In this document: in pieces, positions 1,267-47,773 of the stretch
Layout of the letters: each line of letters opens with the position of its first letter
How positions within the stretch are numbered: the first letter of the stretch is position 1
Virus record (IMG/VR): IMGVR_UViG_2667527975_000009
Span: 1 to 47,773 of that record
Direction: 5' to 3' (one strand)
From: a virus
Taxonomy: Duplodnaviria; Heunggongvirae; Uroviricota; Caudoviricetes
DNA: 47,773 bases
Position numbers and translations under genes: made by a program
The notes under the pieces: model-generated
What the model was told of the DNA's origin: nothing
The model's database searches: none
The model's input: only the letters and a program-made list of their open reading frames with translations

Positions 1267-3441
1267 CTATCTAATCCTGAACATTACAATTGGAGCAGAG
1301 CCAGAAGATAAAGGGCCTGACCAATGGTATCTAATTCTGAAAGAAGACTCACTTGGAGTTCCGATAATTTCTATTGGACTTAAAGTTGCACCTTCTGCAG
1401 AACCAGCAGGTTGTCTAAACCCCAACACAGCAATCTGGTTTGGTGTTGGGGCATACAGAAAATTATGCTCAATATCAACCTCGTTAGATTCGCTACCTGT
1501 TGGGTTTGGCATATTCCACTCAATATAATCGTCAGTTGATTTCCCATTTATTGAGTTTCCAACTGTTGCCATAATCGTCCACGTACACGTCCTGTTAAGG
1601 GCTGCCATTCTATCACCTAAAAACCTATTATAACCATTTGCGCCTGAAGTGATTAATCTTATATTCTCTGATGCACATGTGCCAATGCTGTTAAATCCAG
1701 TGCAATCAGAAGAAAGCCCCTTCGCAGTTATATCTACGCTGTTCGCAAAACAAATTGTTGTTGAATTTACTGCATCGCGAATAAGAGCAGAACCCGAAAA
1801 CAAATTATCACACGAACCTCTTATATTATTACCACCGCCGGATAAGTAACATAAATTTCCTTTTATCCTCTTGGATGTAAAAGTAACATTGTTATTGTCA
1901 CCAGTAACAGAAAGAAGCGAGGCTTTAATAGGGGCATTGTCACTCTGTAACTGACCAATTTGGTTTATTGTAACTACATTGTTGTTGCCTGATATAGCTA
2001 TCTGATACCCATCATCATCAATTGAAGGTGAATATCTTTGTGCTTTTATATTGATGTTAAGTGTCCAGATTGTACCGTTATCCAGAAGCATGTCGCGGAG
2101 AGGAGAAATTGAATCGCCAGTGTAGTTATCTGGCATTCTTCCGCACGCCCTGGCTTCTGCGATGGCAACAACACCATGTGCCCCGTTGGTAAACCAGTAA
2201 CCACCTAAACTATTATCAACACACACATGCCTCGCATTGAATCGGTTAACACCCAGCGTCTTAAATCCATAGCCATAATACGCAGCATATACATGGATGT
2301 AATTTATATCGACATGTCCTGTATAAGGAGACTGATTATCAAGAACAATTCCATGACATGGTTCTCCGGGATAAAGAAGGCTTTGTTGGCTTGTTGCTGT
2401 TAATCTTGCGCTGTAAGGAGGAAGTCCACACAGGCCAAAAACAATATAATCCATGTTAATATCACCTGGCCCCCTGAACACAACCCCCTCTCTCCCTGAA
2501 ATTCTTCCCGTTATCCTCACTTCAGAGGCGTGTTCCTGATTATCATGAAATGATCCATACCCCTCTGAATAGAGAGCATGTTCTGCAACATTATTAATCT
2601 CAACGTCAATGTGGTACATGCTGCCGAATATTTTAATGGCAGTTCCATAGTCATTGTTAACAGTGTCGCAAGTTCTCCATGAGTTTGTATCTCTTTGCAA
2701 GTCAAGATAATTACCATCAATGGTCATATCTTTTATGCTAAATCCATATGGCGCATCAGACAGATTTTCCACAACGCCAAAGCCATGTGTTTTAAATACA
2801 TCTGTATTACTACCTTTTTTAACATACAGAAATGTTGCTCTCTTTCCAGAGCCTTTATGATGAACGCCTGTATAAAGAATGATAGGAGAATCTATTAAAT
2901 AAACACCTGGAGGGTAAAATATTTCCCCGCCACCATTATTAAAAGCAGCTAATGCTGCGGCATTAATGGCATCAGAATCTGATGTCAATCCATCTGCTTT
3001 AGCTCCATAGTATTGAGGTGTTTTCCTGATTGCATCGTAAACCGTTGAAGCGCCGAAACCGATATATTTACTACCATCTGTACCGCCAATAAGTAATTTA
3101 AACTGATCCGGGTCATACTTCAGCACATTCGGAAAATAGAACTGCTGTGTACCATACGCATCATAAACAGCCATAGAATGGCCTTGCACGGTTACGAATT
3201 TGGCAATCTGTCCGTTATATACCGGATATCCAGCAGCGTTAATGATTATTGGTTGCGAAACAGGAACGTGAGAACCGTCTTCATTCTCCACATAAACCTG
3301 AATCTGGTTTTCAGGATTTACTGGGTCAGTGTCAATTTTACCGATATAAATTTTGCCATTAGCTACGGCTTTAAAAGAGCGGGCCATAGTGAAGAGTTGC
3401 GAAGGCATGCTCACTACAACATTGGCTGTAATGTCTGTCAT
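1267..3441 (-). CDS. Tailspike (P22 gp9 / HK620-type head-binding domain with a divergent receptor-binding domain)
   Basis: 724 aa. The first ~115 aa ([46 protein letters not shown]...) match the conserved head-binding domain of P22-like tailspikes; the remainder is unrelated to the P22 or HK620 sequences I recall. The gene is visibly more AT-rich than its neighbours. Confidence 0.9.
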
Positions 3442-37394: not shown

Positions 37395-37642
37395 AATAGC
37401 GGGTAAAACATTTCTCACATCTAAAAAATACCATTCCAATCAATCCCCTGCCGCTTCAAGTAGATGTCTGCAGGGGACACCATGAACACTTCTCACTAAG
37501 TTCAATTAATTCCATAACTCACTGTTTTAACTGATATCATCTCCTTATACTCGTCCAGCAAAGTACCATTATTTCTAATGGAATCTATACATCTTTGCGT
37601 ATAACATTGTGTATAACTGAGTTCGATCTTTTTTCTATACAC

Positions 37643-38818
37643 ATGCTGCTATCTGACATCCAAATAAAAAGAGCAAAACCGAAGGACAAACCCTATACGC
37701 TTAACGATGGTATGGGGCTATCACTCCTGATCGACACAGCGGGCAGTAAAGGCTGGCGTTTTCGCTATCGCTTTGCAGGTAAGCCTAAGATGATTTCCTT
37801 TGGCGTATATGGCGATGTGTCGTTGGCACAGGCACGTACCAAACGTGATGAAGCGCGTTCGATGTTAGCCAACGGGATAAACCCAAGTGAAGCCAGAAAA
37901 GCAGATAAGATTGCTTTGCAGTTCGCGCATGAGAACAGCTTTGAGTCTGTGGCCAGAGAATGGCACTCATCGAAAAAAGCCACCTGGTCAGAGGGTTATG
38001 CAAAAGAGGTTCTCAATTGTATGGAAAAGGATATTTTTCCTTTTATCGGCCAGCGCCCAATTGAGCAGATTGAACCATTAGAACTGCTAACCGTCCTGCA
38101 AAAAATAGAGAAAAGAGGTGCGCTAGAGCAAACCAGTAAGATCCGCCGCCGCTGTGGTGAAGTGCTTCGTTATGCTGTTGCCACTGGTAGAGCAAAGTAT
38201 AATTTTGCACCCGATTTAGCTATCGCACTCAACAAACCTAAAACCCAACACTTCCCGTTCCTGACTGAAAGCGAGTTGCCCGAGTTCGTTAATGCTCTGG
38301 ATAACTATCAGGGCAGTTTAGTTACCAAATACGCCACGCAGCTGTTGATGCTAACAGGCGTGCGAACAATTGAACTACGTGCAGCGGAATGGGCTGAGTT
38401 TGATTTAGATAATGCCTTATGGGAGATCCCCAAAGAACGGATGAAGAAACGCCGCCCCCATCTGGTTCCGTTATCAACTCAGGCGATCAATATCCTGAAA
38501 AAGCTGCAAGAAATAACAGGGAATTACAGCCTCGTTTTCCCTGGCCGGAATGACGTCAGTAAACCAATGAGCGAAGCCAGCATCAACAAAGTGATAAAAC
38601 TACTGGGTTATCACGGTCGGTTAACGGGTCACGGTTTCAGGCATACCATGAGCACCATCTTGCATGAGCATGGGTTTGAAAGTGCCTGGATTGAAATGCA
38701 GCTTGCGCATGTTGATAAGAACTCTATTCGAGGTACTTACAATCATGCGCAATATATTAAAGATCGACAAGTAATGATGGAATGGTACGCTAGCTTATTA
38801 AATACGACCTGCTATTAA
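37643..38818 (+). CDS. int: Tyrosine integrase, P4 type (second integrase)
   Basis: Start taken at the internal Met (MLLSDIQIKRAKPKDKPYTLNDGMGL...); homologous to but clearly distinct from the integrase at 1..1158. Confidence 0.9.
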   Translation: MLLSDIQIKRAKPKDKPYTLNDGMGLSLLIDTAGSKGWRFRYRFAGKPKMISFGVYGDVSLAQARTKRDEARSMLANGINPSEARKADKIALQFAHENSFESVAREWHSSKKATWSEGYAKEVLNCMEKDIFPFIGQRPIEQIEPLELLTVLQKIEKRGALEQTSKIRRRCGEVLRYAVATGRAKYNFAPDLAIALNKPKTQHFPFLTESELPEFVNALDNYQGSLVTKYATQLLMLTGVRTIELRAAEWAEFDLDNALWEIPKERMKKRRPHLVPLSTQAINILKKLQEITGNYSLVFPGRNDVSKPMSEASINKVIKLLGYHGRLTGHGFRHTMSTILHEHGFESAWIEMQLAHVDKNSIRGTYNHAQYIKDRQVMMEWYASLLNTTCY

Positions 38819-39748
38819 ATCCAGCATGAAACAAATATGGTGAGTAATTTGATACTGTTTGTTTTTTGGCAACCCAGGGAAATGCCTTACAGTTGGTTGA
38901 CTATTGTAATAATAATAGTTAAGACCAATGTTGCTGCCAAACTGGGTTGGATGTTGGGGAACAAGATTTGTAATTTGATCTGAAACATCTAAAAATTTTG
39001 CAGTAACATTTGAACTTCCTCGTTGCGTGTTGCTTGATACAAAATGACGAATCCAAACTGTATTCGCTTGTAAATTCTTGAACACCAAATGTGCGGCAAC
39101 AGCAGAAGGTTGACCACCTCCAAGATCTAGTACCTGGCCAGTAATTGTATAATCGCCAAATCCTAAGTAATTTTGTCCCACGAATTGATGTGCGTGCGTG
39201 AAAAGTTCCGGCCCATTATAATCAGCATTTTTTGCTAACTTTCTAAAGTTATCGCTAATAATAATTAACTTCGACAAAGGAAGAAGAGCGCACTGATTAG
39301 GAAGCATTTTATTATTTAAAACAACATGATAACTAATCAATTGATTTGTCGCCAACAACTGAATATCAGAGTTGGATAATGATGGATTATCATATAGAAG
39401 TGCAACTCGTCTATTTAAGTTAGCATTCAACCAATTATTAATATCATTAATCGTTGTATTGGGCTGAATAAGATATCCAGAGATGATATTATTTTTATTT
39501 GTTAATACACTTGATAAATTTTGATTTAAAGTTAAGACGTTATTGTGTGAAGAAAAATCTTCCTGATAAGGATTAAGGATAACAATTATGTCAGAATTCC
39601 AAACATTTAAACATGTTAATAAATTTCTCGTATTGACGTTAATTGGTTCTAAAATTGGTAGCAGACCATTTAGGCTAACTCCCTTCGCAACGAGGTCCCT
39701 AAGGCATAATAACTCTGTACTTCTCGCATACAAATATGGGCTATACAT
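38798..39748 (-). CDS. Cargo protein B (unknown function; AT-rich accessory gene)
   Basis: 316 aa, Asn/Leu/Ser-rich, low GC; second gene of a two-gene operon, and its 3' end overlaps the 3' end of int by 21 bp. Confidence 0.7.
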   Translation of the reverse strand: MYSPYLYARSTELLCLRDLVAKGVSLNGLLPILEPINVNTRNLLTCLNVWNSDIIVILNPYQEDFSSHNNVLTLNQNLSSVLTNKNNIISGYLIQPNTTINDINNWLNANLNRRVALLYDNPSLSNSDIQLLATNQLISYHVVLNNKMLPNQCALLPLSKLIIISDNFRKLAKNADYNGPELFTHAHQFVGQNYLGFGDYTITGQVLDLGGGQPSAVAAHLVFKNLQANTVWIRHFVSSNTQRGSSNVTAKFLDVSDQITNLVPQHPTQFGSNIGLNYYYYNSQPTVRHFPGLPKNKQYQITHHICFMLDLIAGRI

Positions 39749-39769
39749 AACTTACAACTCCTGAGGATA

Positions 39770-40651
39770 TCAACAAATTTTAATTTTTACATCCATCAAA
39801 TTCATGATGAATTCTTTTTGCTTTCTTGATAATGGTGTTGCATAACCTAAAACACGTAAACATGCTGGAAGAGAATAAATATAATCCAAAAAAACTTTAT
39901 CGTTACATCTTTTTTTCATAGCAGAGATAAAGTATTTATTTGCTATGTTTAATGGCATCTGCATGAATATCTCTTTACAATATTCATAAACCAATCCGTT
40001 AGGCATATTTATTTTAGTTGAAGTGTAATCTTCTATTATAGCTAAGAACTCTTCCTTTCTAAGAACTGAAAACAAGCTGTCACTTTTAATATAATCAATA
40101 TTTGAATCTGCCTCCTTAATGACACTCAATTGATCTTTTTTATTCAAAACCATAACTCCCACTCTGGGGAGATTTAAAGCACAATATTTACTTGCATACT
40201 CTGGATGTGTAACTATATACACTTTATCAAAAACATCCAAATAATCAGGGGCTTGAGTAATCAACCTTTTTGGTGAATCATACTCTGTCTTAATCTCGTA
40301 AGCTGTAGACGTACCATTAAACACCGCAACATCCACTATAGAGTTTTTAATTGGTAACTCTATGGACGACGAACTTGTTTTTGGGCTGTGCTTACCGAAT
40401 ATTATTTTATTGACAAGTGCTGTCTTATAAACATATTCATTTCTATAATTCAGACGCAAAAAATCATATAATGATGTAAATAAATCCCTTAGTGAAATCT
40501 CATGTTCATTATTATCATTGTTTGAAAACAGTGTTTCATAGCAGTAAGAATCAAAACTCCCAAATAAATCCGAAATATCCTTACCTTTTGCTAAGGATGA
40601 AAAAATGGGGCGACGGAAAAATTTAGCATATTCCTTTTTATTATGACTCAT
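39770..40651 (-). CDS. Cargo protein A (unknown function; possible PD-(D/E)xK nuclease-like motif)
   Basis: 293 aa, AT-rich; contains ...SIVDVAVFNGTSTAYEIKTEYD..., which resembles a D...E-x-K nuclease core. Confidence 0.7.
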   Translation of the reverse strand: MSHNKKEYAKFFRRPIFSSLAKGKDISDLFGSFDSYCYETLFSNNDNNEHEISLRDLFTSLYDFLRLNYRNEYVYKTALVNKIIFGKHSPKTSSSSIELPIKNSIVDVAVFNGTSTAYEIKTEYDSPKRLITQAPDYLDVFDKVYIVTHPEYASKYCALNLPRVGVMVLNKKDQLSVIKEADSNIDYIKSDSLFSVLRKEEFLAIIEDYTSTKINMPNGLVYEYCKEIFMQMPLNIANKYFISAMKKRCNDKVFLDYIYSLPACLRVLGYATPLSRKQKEFIMNLMDVKIKIC

Positions 40652-41332: not shown

Positions 41333-41605
41333 TTACCCATTCTTTTGCGCAGCCAGCAGCAACTTTAAAGCCTTTTCCCGTTCCTCGGGTGGAATTGCAT
41401 CAATCAGCTCTTTAACCCTTCCCTGCCCGTTCAGCGCGCTTGGACTAACGGAATGGGAGAAAGCAACATTCATCACAAACGAGTGACCGCACTCCACATT
41501 AGAGCAATAGCAGTACACATCGTACAGTTGTGGGTGTTTCCTGTTTGTTTTACCTATCCGTGCTACTGCCTGACATGTGGGGCAGTACATTCTCATCATC
41601 TTCAT
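41333..41605 (-). CDS. Ogr/Delta-family zinc-finger transcriptional activator
   Basis: 90 aa with C-x2-C...C-x4-C (MYCPTCQAVARIG...CYCSNVECGHSF). Confidence 0.8.
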   Translation of the reverse strand: MKMMRMYCPTCQAVARIGKTNRKHPQLYDVYCYCSNVECGHSFVMNVAFSHSVSPSALNGQGRVKELIDAIPPEEREKALKLLLAAQKNG

Positions 41606-41679
41606 CGTTCTGTGCCCTATACTGTTGCCCGCCAGAAGAAGGGATTTGGATCCCTACCTCTTGTTCTGAACGTGTAACA

Positions 41680-41862
41680 CTGGTAACACGTGTAACGCTA
41701 TTGATTTAAAAGGATTTAATCTGTTACCAGTTAGCAAAATCAAGAGGTAACGCGTGGTAACACACCATTTTTTGTTACCTCTGTTACCAGTCAGTATTTT
41801 TGACTGGTAACACTGAAGAACCGCATCAGTAACGGGTGTTACCTCTGTTACCAGTGTTACCT
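41680..41862. repeat. Iteron array (TGTTACC / GGTAACA, at least 10 copies in both orientations); putative satellite ori
   Basis: Visible directly, for example CTGTTACCAG four times, GGTAACAC and GTGTTACCTC, immediately downstream of the primase gene. Confidence 0.65.
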
Positions 41863-41887
41863 CATAAAAATAAGACTCACGCGATAA

Positions 41888-44575
41888 TCACTCAGGTTCA
41901 GCGCTTCCCAGTACCTGTGTATTGAACTGGTACACACGTTTAAGCCCTATTTCTGGCAGGCGAATGCTGTTTTGCGTCCGGCCATCTTCACCGGGTTTCA
42001 GCCAGCCCGCGTCCACACACAACCTGGCCACCTTACGCGAGTCAAATCCCTTACAGATCTCCTTCCAGCCTGACGGGAGAACGTAGAACGTCACAACCGG
42101 CTCTGTCACGTTGTCTCCTTTATCGACTTTTCTGAATCCCATCATTGAAACAGGCCGGTTCCTGTCGTCATTCCAGTCAGCAAACCGACTGAACTGATTA
42201 CGCGTCATGAAGTCCCGAACCTGTTCAAGTGCCGCTTTATCTTCCTGATTAGCTGTATGGCCCCGGTCAGCCATCCATGCAGCCAGACAGCTTTGAGCGG
42301 CACGAAAGGCCTCTCCCTCCGGCCATCCTGTGATGCCCGCTTTTGTGGCCAGCTCCCCGGCCATCGCAACCAGAGCAAAACGGGTAACAGCCCGGCCAAC
42401 CTGATTCCCGGCATTTTCCGGCGTCAGCCTTCGGGTATACTCTTTCAATAAGGCTTTCGCCTGACTGGTCAGTTCCGGCAGATCAGCGGTCAGGCAATAC
42501 AGCCAGTCGCGGAATGGTGCACCATGATAATGCGCTACGTGCTGCTCAAGATGCTCAGCCAGGGTTTTCCCGCTACTGAAGCCATGAAGTTCTTCAAACA
42601 CGCCATACTTGCCCGAATCGCTTGGGATCTGGATCATTCTGACCTCAACCCCGGCATACGTACGTTCCCCGGCGCTTGCCGCATGCTCTACCAGTGACAG
42701 TTCCCCGGTAGACAGAAACAACAGATTCCAGCGGTTGGTTTCCCTTACCGAACCATCTGTTCTGGCTCTGGCTTTGCCCTGCCCGTTAGCCAGCATATAA
42801 GCGATATTTCCCGCCTCCCTGCCGTCAACCTCCCGGATTTCATCCAGCATCAGCGTGGCATCATTGCGGCGGCTCGCCGTTCCTTCTAAGGCATTCCCCG
42901 TCGCCCGCCACGTATGCCAGAAATCTGTTCCACCACATACTGATGCAGCCACTTTCATCGTCGTGGTTTTACCGTCTGTGGATTCCCCTTTGAGGTGATA
43001 ACCTCCACCGCCGATACCAACCAGTTTCAGAAGGGGGGCAGCAAATGCCAGACTCACCGCAAAGGCAAGACGGGCATTCTTTATGCAATAACGGCCTATA
43101 TTTTCACGCCAGCCCTCTGATGTGCCGCTGACACGAAAATCACGCCCCTGCACACTCGATGTTTGTAAGATGACTGACTGGGCTTCGCGCCCTATCACTT
43201 CATCCTGGAGAACGTAAACCCCGCCGTGCCAGCCAGTTTTATTCACACAGGTTACTTTTCTGTCCGGTTTACACAGCGAGATATATTCCATCAGGAATGC
43301 TCTGGCCATGCCGTTAATGTTGATGTAAGAAAGCCCGTTAACCAGCAGAACGCGGCGCAGTTCTTCCCCGCTACCGCCCAGCATCTCCATCGGCATTGCC
43401 CATTTACGGCTGTTTCCGTTGGTATCTTCCCATTCCAGCAAACGCCCGTAATTACTTCCATCAGCATCACTGGTGATTGCCGTCACCCGCAACGGACTGC
43501 AAATTTTGATATTACGTATCTCTGTATCACCATCAGACTTATTAACCAGCTTGTCGTACCACAAATATTCTTTTGTCAGCCGGAACCCTTCTGGTAAACG
43601 GGTCTGCCCTTTGCCATGCAGCGTCATTTCTTCACGAAAGGCATCTCTCGCCCGTTCTTTCCCCACTTCCTGCCGATAATCATCCCAGTCAGCCTTATGG
43701 CGTACCGGAGGGAGCGTTACCCAGCCATCCACCGCTTTGGCGGCTTTCTCTGCCTGAATACGCCCGGTGTTTTCTTTGCCGTCAGCCAGATCATTATCTC
43801 CGGCCAGAATGATCCGGGTTTCCGGCCAGCGTTTTCGGATCTGCTCCGTCACCTTCAGTAAATTGGTGGCAGCGACAGCCGCCACGATCCATCCTTCAGT
43901 CAGCAGACTGACGGTAAGCGCCGTGGCAAAACCCTCAGTGATAATCACCTGTTCAGGTGTTTCAGCGGGTATATCGGTCAGGGCAATGAATGCGCCAGAC
44001 AGCTGGCTACCGGGCAGCAGACTTTTATCCCCGTCAGGATTGATAAGCTGGCCACCAGTAATATTCCCGGAAATATCCGTCAAAGGCAGCAGTAATGAAC
44101 CGGTGGAAAATGTTATTCCGGCCAGATTCAAAGGCTGTGACAGCAAGGGAAGTGAATACCCGTGTAAGCTCTTATTTGTCAGATAGACCGGCTCACCATT
44201 GCAGGACTGCTGTCTGAGTCTGGTATATCGCTCCGCGCCCGCTTCTTTTCCTGCGGCCTTTTTCCTGGCTGGCAATGCGGGCTTCTCCTGTATTTCTGGT
44301 AATGCAAGCGCCTCAGATACCATCCCGGCGACTTCTTTTATCTTTCTTCCTGTCACCAGACGAACCAGATCAAGACCATCGCCATGACCGCACTGATTAC
44401 AAAACCACGTCCCTCGCCCCGCTTTATCGTCCAGTCGAAAACGATCTTTTCCACCACAGGCAGGGCAAGCCCCATGATGTCCTGCGGACGGTACTTTAAT
44501 ACCTAATGCTGACAGGATATAAGGCCAGCGCCCAATTGCAGCTCCGGAAATCGTGGATACAGACGGTGTTTTCAC
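41888..44575 (-). CDS. Primase-helicase (P4 alpha-like)
   Basis: 895 aa with an N-terminal Zn-ribbon (CPACGGKDRF...CNQCGHGDG), a TOPRIM-like region (IITEGFATAL...AGDNDLADG) and Walker A motif GESTDGKTT. Confidence 0.9.
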   Translation of the reverse strand: MKTPSVSTISGAAIGRWPYILSALGIKVPSAGHHGACPACGGKDRFRLDDKAGRGTWFCNQCGHGDGLDLVRLVTGRKIKEVAGMVSEALALPEIQEKPALPARKKAAGKEAGAERYTRLRQQSCNGEPVYLTNKSLHGYSLPLLSQPLNLAGITFSTGSLLLPLTDISGNITGGQLINPDGDKSLLPGSQLSGAFIALTDIPAETPEQVIITEGFATALTVSLLTEGWIVAAVAATNLLKVTEQIRKRWPETRIILAGDNDLADGKENTGRIQAEKAAKAVDGWVTLPPVRHKADWDDYRQEVGKERARDAFREEMTLHGKGQTRLPEGFRLTKEYLWYDKLVNKSDGDTEIRNIKICSPLRVTAITSDADGSNYGRLLEWEDTNGNSRKWAMPMEMLGGSGEELRRVLLVNGLSYININGMARAFLMEYISLCKPDRKVTCVNKTGWHGGVYVLQDEVIGREAQSVILQTSSVQGRDFRVSGTSEGWRENIGRYCIKNARLAFAVSLAFAAPLLKLVGIGGGGYHLKGESTDGKTTTMKVAASVCGGTDFWHTWRATGNALEGTASRRNDATLMLDEIREVDGREAGNIAYMLANGQGKARARTDGSVRETNRWNLLFLSTGELSLVEHAASAGERTYAGVEVRMIQIPSDSGKYGVFEELHGFSSGKTLAEHLEQHVAHYHGAPFRDWLYCLTADLPELTSQAKALLKEYTRRLTPENAGNQVGRAVTRFALVAMAGELATKAGITGWPEGEAFRAAQSCLAAWMADRGHTANQEDKAALEQVRDFMTRNQFSRFADWNDDRNRPVSMMGFRKVDKGDNVTEPVVTFYVLPSGWKEICKGFDSRKVARLCVDAGWLKPGEDGRTQNSIRLPEIGLKRVYQFNTQVLGSAEPE

Positions 44576-44982: not shown

Positions 44983-45211
44983 CGCGCATCACTCCCTTAA
45001 TTGTGCTGGTTTCCTTAACAACGCCATCCAGTTGTTCGGCAATACAGGCCACTAAAGCCGCAGCGCCTTCCGCTGAAACAGTTCTCGCTCCATTCACTGT
45101 GGGCACGGACAAGACCTCTGCAAGAAACTCACTGGCCAGTGCCGCCCGTAACAGACGACTCTCCCCCTGTTCACTCAATATGCAGCCTTGCTTAAAATTC
45201 ATGGATTTCAT
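44975..45211 (-). CDS. Hypothetical protein (primase operon)
   Basis: 78-aa ORF, coupled. Confidence 0.5.
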   Translation of the reverse strand: MKSMNFKQGCILSEQGESRLLRAALASEFLAEVLSVPTVNGARTVSAEGAAALVACIAEQLDGVVKETSTIKGVMRDE

Positions 45212-45411
45212 GCAACCACCTCCCCGGCTCTTTTCACAGGGATACGGGCAGCAAAGCTCAGGATAAATTCAGTGGCAAGTTTAAGGCGTGCAGCATGCTC
45301 GCATTCTGCGATTACACGCACAGGGCGTGGACGGGCATCACGGTCTGTACGGCGGACAGCCAGAAAGACAAAGGTAAATTCAGGGTGAGATAAAGCAGGG
45401 ACTGTAGCCAT
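45208..45411 (-). CDS. Hypothetical protein (first gene of the primase operon)
   Basis: About 67 aa from MATVPALSHPEF with GAAGGAGG 8 nt upstream; the longer 196-aa ORF upstream is low-complexity. Confidence 0.45.
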   Translation of the reverse strand: MATVPALSHPEFTFVFLAVRRTDRDARPRPVRVIAECEHAARLKLATEFILSFAARIPVKRAGEVVA

Positions 45412-45630
45412 AATGGCAACCTCCTTCAGATAGCGGGTAACGCTACCACCGGAGTTCCTACGCTCATGGGTGGTAGCCCAGACGGGGGTAGGAATACCGG
45501 CTCTGAAGGATACCGGCCAGCCCGAAAGCTGCCCCGCCTGGACTACCATAATTCTGATGATGTGGCGTAAAAAATAAAAAAATACAATCAGCCACCACAC
45601 CATAAATTTTAGGTGAGTCAAAGCTGCGAC

Positions 45631-45655
45631 ACAAAAAAACACGCCTAGCGCGTGT
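45631..45655 (-). terminator. Intrinsic terminator or attenuator in the leader upstream of the primase operon
   Basis: On the minus strand, ACACGC-GCTAG-GCGTGT followed by UUUUUU. Confidence 0.6.
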
Positions 45656-45848
45656 AGTATCGCCTTCAGATAACACGGGTTCCTACGCCCGGCTGCCGAT
45701 TTTGCGGCAACCTTTAAACTATATCCCGCGCATTCCTGGTGAGGCAAGAAATTTATAACCGAAAACTGATCATTGCCTGGATTAATTAACGCTGGCATGC
45801 TTAAGCCTCTGCTTAAAAATAGTTCTTCATTTTTCCTGATGCTGTAAA

Positions 45849-45885: not shown

Positions 45886-46890
45886 TCAATCCGCAAACGT
45901 CAGGGTGCACTCATCAACAGCCGCGTACAGTTCAGGTTCACCGAGTGCATAACCTTCATTGCGCAGGTAGGAATGCACGTATTCACTGCTTTCATCATCA
46001 AACTCAGCACGAAACCAGCGTGTTATCGCCTGAGTGTAAATATGCAGATTATCCAGCGTCGTTACTGCCAGACGCTTACCCGGCATAAACGGGGGAATAA
46101 ACGCAAAGCGGCCAGCAACAGAACTTGTAGCCATCTGTGCCGCATTCACATCAGACGGGCGGTCTGCGGCATTAAATAACTTCAGGCGTTGATGTGCTGC
46201 CAGCTCTGCCCCAACCAGTACAACCAGACGAGGATCTTCACGAAACTGCTCAGCAATAAGCTCTGTAATCAGATGGTTGGCCAGAGCATCAATATTTTTC
46301 CAGGTGCCAGTCTCTCCCAGAGTGACAGGCTCAGAGATGATTTGCTTTCCGTTCCCGTAGGCTTTCGCCAGTGCATGCCAGCCAATATTGACATCCTCGC
46401 CTTTTTTATTGATTTCCGGGTTTGTAGTATTTGCAATCGACACACCGTTGAAACCGACCCGCAGCATGTCCAGCGCATATGCCTGGGCAAAAAAGCTCTC
46501 AACCGTTTTCTCAAACTCATCCGGCACGCCGGTATGGTAAATATGAGACATATCGGAATAGCTGATCCGGGCGCAGGTATCCGTCTCTGTCAGAAAGAAC
46601 TCCGTACCATTGATTGCCATTTTTTTGTGGAAACGGCCACCATCCACACGTCCGGTATACAGTTCACTGGCACCAATATTGACGGCATTACCTGACACGG
46701 CGTTAACATCACGTAGGGTAATATTTTTAATAAGCCACCCGGATTCCAGAATTGAGGTACGCAGTATATTTTCAGTAGGTTCGCTTAATGCAAAGCGTCT
46801 GTTTGATTCTTCCTGATAGTTAGTGCCAGTGACGAATTTATTATGATAACGACGTGCTGCGTCCGGCCTTTCAGTTTTGAAGGCATACAT
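45886..46890 (-). CDS. Putative P2-family major-capsid-like protein (uncertain)
   Basis: 334 aa; the segments GFNGV..., EDPRLVVLVGAELAA and TLDNLHIYT resemble P2 GpN as I recall it. Not verified. Confidence 0.35.
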   Translation of the reverse strand: MYAFKTERPDAARRYHNKFVTGTNYQEESNRRFALSEPTENILRTSILESGWLIKNITLRDVNAVSGNAVNIGASELYTGRVDGGRFHKKMAINGTEFFLTETDTCARISYSDMSHIYHTGVPDEFEKTVESFFAQAYALDMLRVGFNGVSIANTTNPEINKKGEDVNIGWHALAKAYGNGKQIISEPVTLGETGTWKNIDALANHLITELIAEQFREDPRLVVLVGAELAAHQRLKLFNAADRPSDVNAAQMATSSVAGRFAFIPPFMPGKRLAVTTLDNLHIYTQAITRWFRAEFDDESSEYVHSYLRNEGYALGEPELYAAVDECTLTFAD

Positions 46891-46912: not shown

Positions 46913-47773
46913 TTAAGAAAAGATTTTATTTTTGTACTCAGTAACCAGATTGTATTTCATTACATGCTCAACATAATCCCGGTCACTTACGACTGAACGT
47001 AATACATAATTATCTGCTCGATAGTACTCCCTGTAAGCCATAGCTCTTGCCATTCCACCGTTATTTAATACATAACGATCAGTTGGAACGCTACAACGAC
47101 TAATAATTTCACTCACGGAATCAGATAAAGACTTGAGTGCATCAGTAATAAATTTAATATCACGGACAACGTCACTGTCATTAAATACAGAAATAAAATC
47201 AGCAGGGATCTGGCCGGATTGAGGAAATATATTCAGTAAACGCTTATCGATTCCCTTCCCAATGTAGTTTCCTTCATCGGCCAGTACTCCCGGCAAAAGC
47301 TTGATCGTGCTCAATCGACTATGTTGTTCATTCAACCGGGAAACAGCCAGATGGTAATACCGTTCAGCATCCGCTCGTTCAGCATGCCCCATTTTATTCG
47401 TTTTGGCTTCAGCAATGCTACTGACGCCGTTTTTTGAGAATGTGCTTTTCCATGCAACTTCCGCATTTGTCACTTCACGCTGCCGGAAAGATAACTCTTC
47501 CTCTTCCTGACGACACAACTGGGCATAACGGCTCAGGAGCAGGTTGATCTCATTCGCCACAGTTTCCGTATCAGGTACTGTTAACCCCGTAAGTGAATAC
47601 AGCTTTTCACCTTTAGCTCGCAGCTTATTCAGTGAATATATTTCAATAATACGCACAATACAGGCCGTGTCGCTATGAGTCTCTTTAAATGATCTTACTT
47701 TGTAACTATCTAACACCGACACATGTTCGTTCTTAATTGATGCCAATTTCTTCTTAAAAACATTGTCAACCAT
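46913..47773 (-). CDS. Hypothetical protein
   Basis: 286-aa ORF whose ATG sits at the window edge; coiled-coil-like central region. Confidence 0.5.
   Translation of the reverse strand: MVDNVFKKKLASIKNEHVSVLDSYKVRSFKETHSDTACIVRIIEIYSLNKLRAKGEKLYSLTGLTVPDTETVANEINLLLSRYAQLCRQEEEELSFRQREVTNAEVAWKSTFSKNGVSSIAEAKTNKMGHAERADAERYYHLAVSRLNEQHSRLSTIKLLPGVLADEGNYIGKGIDKRLLNIFPQSGQIPADFISVFNDSDVVRDIKFITDALKSLSDSVSEIISRCSVPTDRYVLNNGGMARAMAYREYYRADNYVLRSVVSDRDYVEHVMKYNLVTEYKNKIFS

Follow-up and report, generated by a model that had tools for sequence, protein, structure and literature searches.

The Rep proteins of Staphylococcus aureus pathogenicity islands (SaPIs) are self-loading helicases that bind iterons of five or six nucleotides through a C-terminal winged helix; in the SaPI origins, 6–12 such iterons directly follow the rep open reading frame (ORF) and flank an AT-rich region, the sites on its two sides pointing in opposite directions (PMC9371898). 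Neither the binding nor the melting of the origin by Rep needs ATP, and in SaPI5 the primase and Rep are fused (PMC9371898). The same origin organization is found 3' of pri-rep in the phage-inducible chromosomal islands (PICIs) of Gram-negative bacteria, where the corresponding segment of EcCICFT073 drives plasmid replication (PMC6092414). The annotated record of the satellite P4 shows an iteron cluster termed crr right behind the alpha stop and another one, ori, at a distance of 4.5 kb. Both P4 clusters are required in cis. Here, we analyzed a stretch of 47,773 nucleotides (positions 1 to 47,773 of IMG/VR virus record IMGVR_UViG_2667527975_000009; hereafter, the window), the right end of which is a P4-like satellite at tRNA-Arg (argW). 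Between the gene for the satellite's 895-residue primase-helicase and an Ogr/Delta-like gene lies an array of short repeats in both orientations, and sequence comparison together with structure modeling makes it likely that this array is a one-piece origin of the SaPI/PICI type, with the C-terminal domain of the primase-helicase itself as the binding partner. Iteron origins beside the initiator gene of a phage satellite are a known and expected kind of feature.

The word GGTAAC occurs 29 times in the window when both strands are counted (expected 12.6 ± 3.1; none of 100 shuffles gave as many), and 10 of the 29 copies lie inside 41682–41861. At the rate observed in the rest of the window, only 0.07 copies would be expected in these 181 bp (Poisson P ~1e-18); likewise, 9 of the 12 window matches to TGTTACC are inside the array. 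The 5-bp core GTAAC occurs at 13 sites in 41674–41860, comprising the ten GGTAAC copies, two GTGTAAC variants (at 41672–41679 and 41690–41697) and one AGTAACG. Comparison with relatives identifies 12 of the 13 core sites as conserved iterons, and the AGTAACG site, which is unconserved there, is probably a chance match. The consensus is approximately (T/A)GGTAACA, or TGTTACC(A/T) on the complementary strand. The initial annotation had reported at least ten copies of a short motif in both orientations within about 180 bp, located between the primase stop and the Ogr-like gene, and both statements agree with these counts and with the positions of the flanking features (primase-helicase stop at 41888 and Ogr/Delta ORF start at 41605, each on the minus strand). 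Its coordinates, 41680–41862, placed the array correctly but missed the first variant repeat, which begins at 41672.

The whole array thus measures ~190 bp (41672–41862), with its first conserved site 25 bp past the primase stop. Counted from that stop along the primase-sense strand, the cores lie at offsets 27, 36, 45, 76, 100, 109, 126, 136, 160, 191, 200 and 209, in the orientations >>> < >> << > <<<. The offsets of mirrored sites sum to 235–236, such that the array has a two-fold axis at window position ~41767, and the span 41674–41860 is 58% self-reverse-complementary (shuffles 26 ± 4%), the best such span; as single-stranded DNA, the array gives a folding z of −5.2. Within blocks, the iterons are spaced by 9–10 bp, which sets consecutive sites ~50 degrees apart on the helix and therefore not all on one face. 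The symmetry of the sites is broken by composition: the spacer between the forward triplet and the inverted site (41698–41721) is ~86% A+T, whereas its mirror image is ~50% A+T, so that the A+T-rich spacer is found on the Ogr side only and thus off-centre. The same imbalance is seen among relatives, in which the A+T-rich spacer averages 80% A+T compared to 45% for the mirror spacer (19 loci). No RNA family in Rfam matches the array.

Homologues of the primase numbered 819 at E ≤ 1e-10. Using an alignment of 15 primase homologues, we collected 55 loci from one-genome-per-species contigs. In nearly all of 52 relatives, a short word occurs 10–13 times in the first 300 bp past the primase stop, and those with an array include Citrobacter, Enterobacter, Pantoea, Pectobacterium, Xenorhabdus, Proteus, Yersinia, Serratia and Rahnella. 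Nearly base for base, the layout recurs in Citrobacter, Enterobacter, Kosakonia, Pantoea, Pectobacterium and Brenneria, as well as in Xenorhabdus, Proteus, Morganella, Yersinia and Rahnella, and the 12-site 3-1-2 / 2-1-3 grammar is shared, together with its spacing, by ~45–50 related loci. In three loci (L039, L045 and L056), the array, built of GTGGGAACA, has been pushed ~1 kb downstream by an inserted gene. The sole relative without an array, L058 from a Pantoea sp. that is a stink-bug symbiont, has a primase gene full of frameshifts, suggesting that gene and origin decay together. No DnaA box was found in any of the 52 arrays, nor was a full IHF consensus, of which only the WATCAA core appears, at a fixed offset in one clade.

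The module of primase gene and array is common to different satellite backbones, being followed by Ogr in the window and by sid-like, psu and delta genes in the Shigella locus L046. The association of array and primase gene, maintained in different genera and satellite backbones, supports the reading of the array as an origin. A BLASTP search with the E. coli Ogr protein had initially suggested that many array loci are without an Ogr gene, a conclusion that we rejected upon finding that a divergent Ogr/Delta gene in L046, located 1.7 kb on behind sid-like and psu, had escaped detection.

Since the array occupies the intergenic space ahead of the Ogr-like gene, it could be conceived of as a transcriptional operator or roadblock acting on read-through from the primase operon into late-type genes, with no role as an origin and with either the primase or an island regulator (Ogr/Delta, AlpA or the Ash/Icd-like protein) as the binder. 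Initiators commonly autoregulate via their own iterons, and every iteron class starts with TGT and ends with ACA on the respective strands, which are the half-sites of Ogr/Delta, whose recognition sequence is TGT-N12-ACA. However, the iteron spacings give no conserved TGT-N12-ACA, the one copy in the window, which overlaps the last iteron, not being kept in relatives. A promoter and terminator scan at the array returned nothing convincing on the minus strand, with no sigma-70-like promoter predicted, and the gene beyond the array varies by backbone, being Ogr here and sid-like in L046. Moreover, the zinc finger of Ogr is identical in L009 and L022 despite their different iteron classes. The operator reading would also leave the A+T-rich spacer and the 12-site symmetry unexplained, and we consider it very unlikely.

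Across the related loci, we distinguished at least eight iteron classes, with the words TGGTAACA (class A, that of the window), GGTGTAACA (class B), GGTGGAACA (class C), GGGTAACA, GGATACA, GGTTACA/GGTGACA, CATGTAGTACA and GTGGGAACA. All 12 sites of one element carry that element's word, and they switch together between lineages, even between close relatives. A tree of the helicase core shows the classes to be polyphyletic, so that the word has switched repeatedly; many sites that change in concert while their scaffold stays fixed are the signature of binding sites for a cognate, element-encoded protein, in keeping with an origin. We compared the primases of six independent switch pairs, which differ at only 16–113 of ~895 residues. 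A 15-residue sliding scan of the whole protein, with no preselected region, peaks at aa 857–875, a segment that holds 8% of the substitutions in the six pairs compared to 2.6% in 44 same-class pairs, and windows changed in all six switch pairs occur only within aa 853–892. For aa 865–880, a window picked after inspection, we counted 18 of 300 substitutions in the switch pairs where 5.4 would be expected (P ~1e-5). Arg866 is present in every class-A sequence, the distant L036 included, and Lys866 in every GGGTAACA, GGTGTAACA and GGTGGAACA sequence, including that of L015, which branches within a group of class-A Xenorhabdus sequences that carry Arg; residues 846 and 850 are also altered in some switch pairs.

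These observations bear on the possibility that the repeats arose by chance or are in decay, or that they are recombinase arm sites, with no role in replication. Integrase arm-type sites are likewise short repeats in both orientations, but 2.9 kb separate the array from the integrase gene, and its distance to the att core at 37468 is 4.2 kb. The density of the motif, the conservation of the layout to the base across genera and the covariation of the word with the tip of the primase leave this explanation with a practically negligible probability.

The 895-residue protein comprises a zinc ribbon (aa 33–68), a Toprim domain (aa 210–307), a DUF927 helicase (aa 331–614; Pfam E 3.9e-91), and, at its C-terminus, a helical region followed by a predicted winged helix. 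By tblastn, residues 1–317 are 38% identical to P4 alpha (E 1e-34), and the similarity ends at residue 317. In phmmer searches, residues 418–648 matched 8tch (SaPIbov1 Rep; 1.5e-13) and 5dgk (Cch; 1.3e-12). The C-terminal 199 residues have no sequence similarity to P4 alpha, and no PDB chain gave a sequence match to the C-terminal region. AlphaFold models reached a pLDDT of 77 for aa 637–895 and a pLDDT of 83 with a pTM of 0.77 for aa 790–895. In these models, the helical region is followed by a winged helix of the order strand-strand-helix-helix-hairpin, with the covarying residues 865–880 predicted to form the hairpin wing and residues 846 and 850 placed at the start of the second helix. The best structural match of the modeled winged helix is the iteron-binding domain of SaPIbov1 Rep; PDB 1KA8, the solved origin-binding domain of P4, is not among the structural matches. 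Both the concentration of the linked protein changes in the wing stretch of aa 857–880 and the match to the SaPIbov1 Rep domain support the assignment of the array as an origin. We infer that the reader of the iteron word is the C-terminal winged helix of the primase-helicase, acting via its wing. Judged by sequence and modeled fold, the replication module is a chimera, in which a P4-type primase domain is joined to a SaPI/PICI-type helicase with its origin-binding domain.

The likeness to SaPIs and PICIs extends over both protein and DNA. The DUF927 helicase, of the MCM-like ring type, is homologous to SaPI Rep and Cch, the modeled winged helix is closest to that of SaPIbov1 Rep, and the primase is fused to the initiator as in SaPI5. 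As in these islands, short iterons numbering within the range of 6–12 (12 here) directly follow the initiator ORF, an A+T-rich segment lies between iterons of opposite orientation, and DnaA boxes are absent. The satellite differs from SaPIs in its host and backbone, being a P4-like element of Enterobacterales rather than a staphylococcal island, and from SaPIs and PICIs in its fused primase domain, which is of the P4 alpha Toprim type. It is further set apart from them by its fixed 12-site mirror grammar and by its off-centre A+T-rich element, which is central in SaPIs. EcCICFT073, which we located in strain CFT073, encodes a 584-residue primase that is unrelated to the satellite primase by BLASTP, and its origin has an A+T stretch surrounded by words of the CTGTCTACC type that point both ways; with another primase and other iteron words, it follows the same logic in a different family.

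Relative to P4, the resemblance lies in the backbone, in the primase domain and in the position of the array. The two elements share a C4/isrK immunity RNA, AlpA, Ogr/Delta, a cII-like sce7726 protein and an orf106-like gene upstream of the primase, and both have an alpha-like primase (residues 1–317 here). Their iteron words are also related (GGTAACA here, GGTGGAACA and GGTGTAACA in sister elements, and GGTGAACA in P4), although that of the window is off by one base. The initial annotation had noted that the motif resembles but differs from the P4 iterons, as is borne out by the type-1 repeat of the annotated P4 record (TGTTCACC). It had also proposed that the array is an origin to which the primase-helicase binds with its C-terminal domain, and the evidence from comparison and structure modeling points to this as well, with the qualification that the nearest analogue appears to be the Rep-ori unit of PICIs and not the ori/crr pair of P4.

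The similarity to P4 raises the question of whether the array could be a crr-like, cis-acting auxiliary enhancer, to which the initiator binds and from which the DNA loops to a true origin situated at a different place in the island. P4 crr, with 10 type-1 repeats in both orientations, occupies the same position directly after the alpha stop and a terminator, and 9-bp-spaced iteron tandems are present in both elements (GGTGAACAgtGTGAACA in crr). The P4 alpha-like nature of the N-terminal primase domain would be in line with such a role as well. Conversely, a k-mer cluster scan that recovers both crr and ori of P4 finds a single cluster in the island and its flanks, compared to the bipartite arrangement of P4, and the array has its own A+T-rich spacer and full dyad symmetry. 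The helicase also differs, being of the DUF927 type rather than that of P4 alpha, with a C-terminal domain that lacks sequence similarity to alpha; helicase and DNA-binding domain are instead of the SaPI Rep type, which uses a single origin in exactly this position. We thus regard an enhancer with a remote origin as unlikely.

Iteron arrays also serve plasmids, and the repeats might form a copy-number, incompatibility or partition locus of a plasmid state, functioning by handcuffing or as a centromere, with initiation occurring elsewhere or by the host. P4 can persist as a plasmid, plasmid iteron arrays control copy number, and the many specificity classes fit an avoidance of cross-talk between co-resident elements. 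However, no ParA/ParB-like genes were found in the island, and the element is present at 469 places that are exclusively chromosomal, with none on plasmids. Handcuffing, furthermore, is an added property of origin iterons and not an alternative to them. As a substitute for an origin, such a locus is highly improbable, whereas a copy-number or incompatibility role of the same iterons, in addition to initiation, is plausible. The iteron plasmids pSC101, F, P1, R6K and RK2 too have repeats next to an A+T-rich region and an element-encoded winged-helix initiator, and the specificity classes described here resemble incompatibility groups. Their iterons, in contrast, are ~17–22 bp long, mostly direct, and accompanied by DnaA boxes and by host DnaB/DnaC, whereas the satellite array is composed of 7–9 bp words, is mirror-symmetric, has no DnaA boxes, and is paired with an initiator that is itself a primase-helicase.

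Two or three primase-array modules are present in one genome in Pantoea leporis (L044 and L043), Pantoea stewartii (L027 and L054) and Enterobacter intestinihominis (L005, L038 and L051). Where both co-resident arrays are readable, they differ in class (A and B in P. leporis, C and B in P. stewartii), as would be expected if the classes avoid cross-talk between co-resident satellites.

A number of points weigh against the assignment of the array as an origin read by the winged helix. P4 crr is an iteron block right after the primase gene, yet it is an auxiliary cis element and not a start site. The structure models were built on 41 fairly similar sequences, and the wing window behind the P value was chosen post hoc, although the unbiased scan agrees with it. 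There is no simple residue-to-base code, as Arg866 is shared with classes D to G, and different residues occupy position 870 among class-A sequences. Finally, covariation cannot formally single out the primase, given that other island proteins differ more in the switch pairs; their greater divergence leaves a test of invariance without power, except for Ogr.

If the array is the origin, initiation could be envisaged as follows. After induction, the satellite would express the primase-helicase, and the winged helix of each subunit would read one (T/A)GGTAACA through the wing hairpin (aa 865–880) and the start of the recognition helix, as suggested by covariation and fold. The two mirror sets of six sites might recruit and orient the DUF927 ring helicase on either side of the dyad, speculatively as a pair of hexamers placed head to head, each subunit on one iteron (12 = 2 × 6). 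The duplex would probably open in the conserved A+T-rich spacer. The lack of DnaA boxes suggests that host DnaA is not needed; from its domain content, the protein would self-load in the manner of SaPI Rep, and its own N-terminal Toprim primase would make the first primers. Hexamer-hexamer interactions are also part of the working model for SaPI Rep (PMC9371898).

With regard to its logic alone, the arrangement resembles that of dyad-symmetric viral origins on which double hexamers assemble, with inverted groups of words around a centre and an adjacent A+T-rich element. As with SV40 large T antigen and papillomavirus E1, the initiator is a ring helicase with its own origin-binding domain. The satellite has 12 sites compared to 4–6 in these systems, its double hexamer is speculative, and no homology of the DNA-binding domains is claimed. 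We tentatively put forward that the 12-site grammar, with its 9-bp phasing, is a one-iteron-per-subunit template for two head-to-head hexamers, forming a bacterial counterpart of SV40 and E1, and that its specificity has been re-coded repeatedly by 1–3 wing residues (e.g. R866K plus 867 or 870), keeping the replicons of co-resident satellites orthogonal; we hold this extended proposal to be possible but rather doubtful.

Coordinates of the array, its component sites and its neighboring features are compiled in Table 1. Two of the listed elements are non-iteron boxes, GAGTCTTATTTTTAT and YTTATTYCTGGCRGGC, neither of which is present in P4; in L036, the YTTATTYCTGGCRGGC box is inverted and lies on the opposite side of the array.

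Table 1 Features of the iteron array and its surroundings, in window coordinates
Feature	Position	Strand	Remark
Whole array, 12 conserved sites, 3-1-2 / 2-1-3	41672..41862		Two-fold symmetry about ~41767
Outer triplet, Ogr side: GTGTAACA, TGGTAACA, GTGTAACG, 9-bp period	41672..41697	+	Last triplet after the primase gene in relatives too
A+T-rich spacer with conserved TTTAAATCAAYG motif; candidate DNA-unwinding element	41698..41721		85% AT at 41700–41719
Single inverted iteron TGTTACCA	41722..41729	-	
Inner pair AGGTAACG / TGGTAACA, 10-bp spacing	41745..41762	+	
Dyad centre, CACCATTTTTTG region	41763..41772		Self-reverse-complement span, mirrored offsets
Inner pair TGTTACCT / TGTTACCA, 9-bp spacing	41773..41789	-	
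Perfect 12-bp palindrome TGTTACCAGTCA-N7-TGACTGGTAACA: inverted iteron pair around an A+T loop	41782..41812		100% complementary
Single iteron TGGTAACA	41805..41812	+	
13th, degenerate copy AGTAACG in G+C-richer spacer	41828..41834	+	L004 reads GCTAC here
Outer triplet, primase side: TGTTACCT, TGTTACCA, TGTTACCT, 9-bp period	41837..41862	-	
Non-iteron box GAGTCTTATTTTTAT between primase stop and first iteron	41864..41878	-	Single copy in window; conserved across iteron classes and genera
Non-iteron box YTTATTYCTGGCRGGC, 50–80 nt past last iteron	41627..41637	-	Conserved across iteron classes and genera
Primase-helicase gene, 895 aa	41888..44575	-	Pfam Zn_Ribbon_Prim + Toprim_3 + DUF927
Predicted C-terminal winged helix, aa 798–889, proposed iteron reader	41909..42184	-	
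Wing hairpin GRTQNSIRLPEIGLKRVY, aa 865–882 (predicted)	41930..41983	-	Residues altered when the iteron word switches
Ogr/Delta-like zinc-finger gene, 90 aa	41333..41605	-	Array neighbor outside the origin

Many E. coli chromosomes match the array region with 100% identity; it was found in 466 of 5426 complete genomes, in 421 of them at ≥99% identity; a Megablast search of the primase region against a phage collection gave no match. In strain SA186, the island extends from tRNA-Arg (argW) beside yfdC to dsdC, in the order integrase, sce7725 and sce7726, Ogr/Delta, array, DUF927 primase, two small ORFs, an Ash/Icd-like ORF, a P2-family major capsid gene, a gene for a 286-residue protein, and AlpA. 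Its P4-like marks are int, AlpA, Ogr/Delta, the alpha-like N-terminus of the primase, the C4 and isrK RNAs, and the cII-like sce7726. Rfam matches on the minus strand identify the C4 antisense RNA (45466–45553, 81 bits), isrK (45634–45711, 69 bits) and the c4-a1b1 target (45672–45724), all inside the Ash/Icd-like ORF (45208–45798), a configuration that corresponds to P4-type CI RNA immunity. The ORF upstream of the primase has a weak match to DUF5375, the family of P4 orf106, and its counterpart in the sister locus L046 a strong one. The satellite lacks sid and psu; in their place, it carries the major capsid gene (45886–46890, minus strand; Pfam E 9.5e-67) and the 286-residue ORF (46913–47773, minus strand), for which neither Pfam nor PHROG gave a match. 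A P4-like element with its own capsid protein may redirect capsid size differently. The sce7725/sce7726 cargo between the integrase and Ogr (38798–40651, minus strand) has a G+C content of 33–35%, compared to ~50%, and the sce7726 protein matches the PADLOC 'cll' model, P4 cII being annotated as the same family; this region is probably the defence hotspot of the satellite. At the far end of the island (alpA–dsdC), outside the window, a tandem of the CAGCCC hexamer reaches up to 17 copies per 250 bp (L001, 20776–21050).

The remainder of the window, positions 1–37467, is a P22-like prophage in tandem with the satellite at argW, 96.6% identical to IME10 over 77% of 25 kb, with genes for an integrase (1–1158), a tailspike (1267–3441), portal, terminase, a DnaB-like helicase and Erf. 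The att core CTGCAGGGGACACCA at 37468–37482 corresponds to the last 15 nt of tRNA-Arg, and homology to strain SA186, which is free of the prophage, begins exactly at CTGCAGGGGACACCA; no tRNA gene is contained within the window. The prophage is not of the P2 type and thus not an obvious helper, and the P2 cos sequence is absent from the window.

General concepts are unchanged by these results, as an origin beside its initiator gene is expected. What is new is the probable assignment of an origin for a satellite lineage that is present in ~9% of complete E. coli genomes and in many other Enterobacterales, together with the recognition, by sequence and modeled structure, of a P4-type primase / SaPI/PICI-type helicase chimera in a P4-like replication module. 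To these is added an invariant 12-site mirror grammar with at least eight natural specificity classes linked to few wing residues. Should the double-hexamer and re-coding proposal be true, the family would offer at least eight orthogonal, compact (3 kb) initiator-origin pairs with a readable recognition code. With the same scaffold, at least eight words and few protein changes, the lineage provides a ready system for how a winged-helix wing reads DNA, and the comparative series could be used toward orthogonal replicons or satellite-based delivery vectors.

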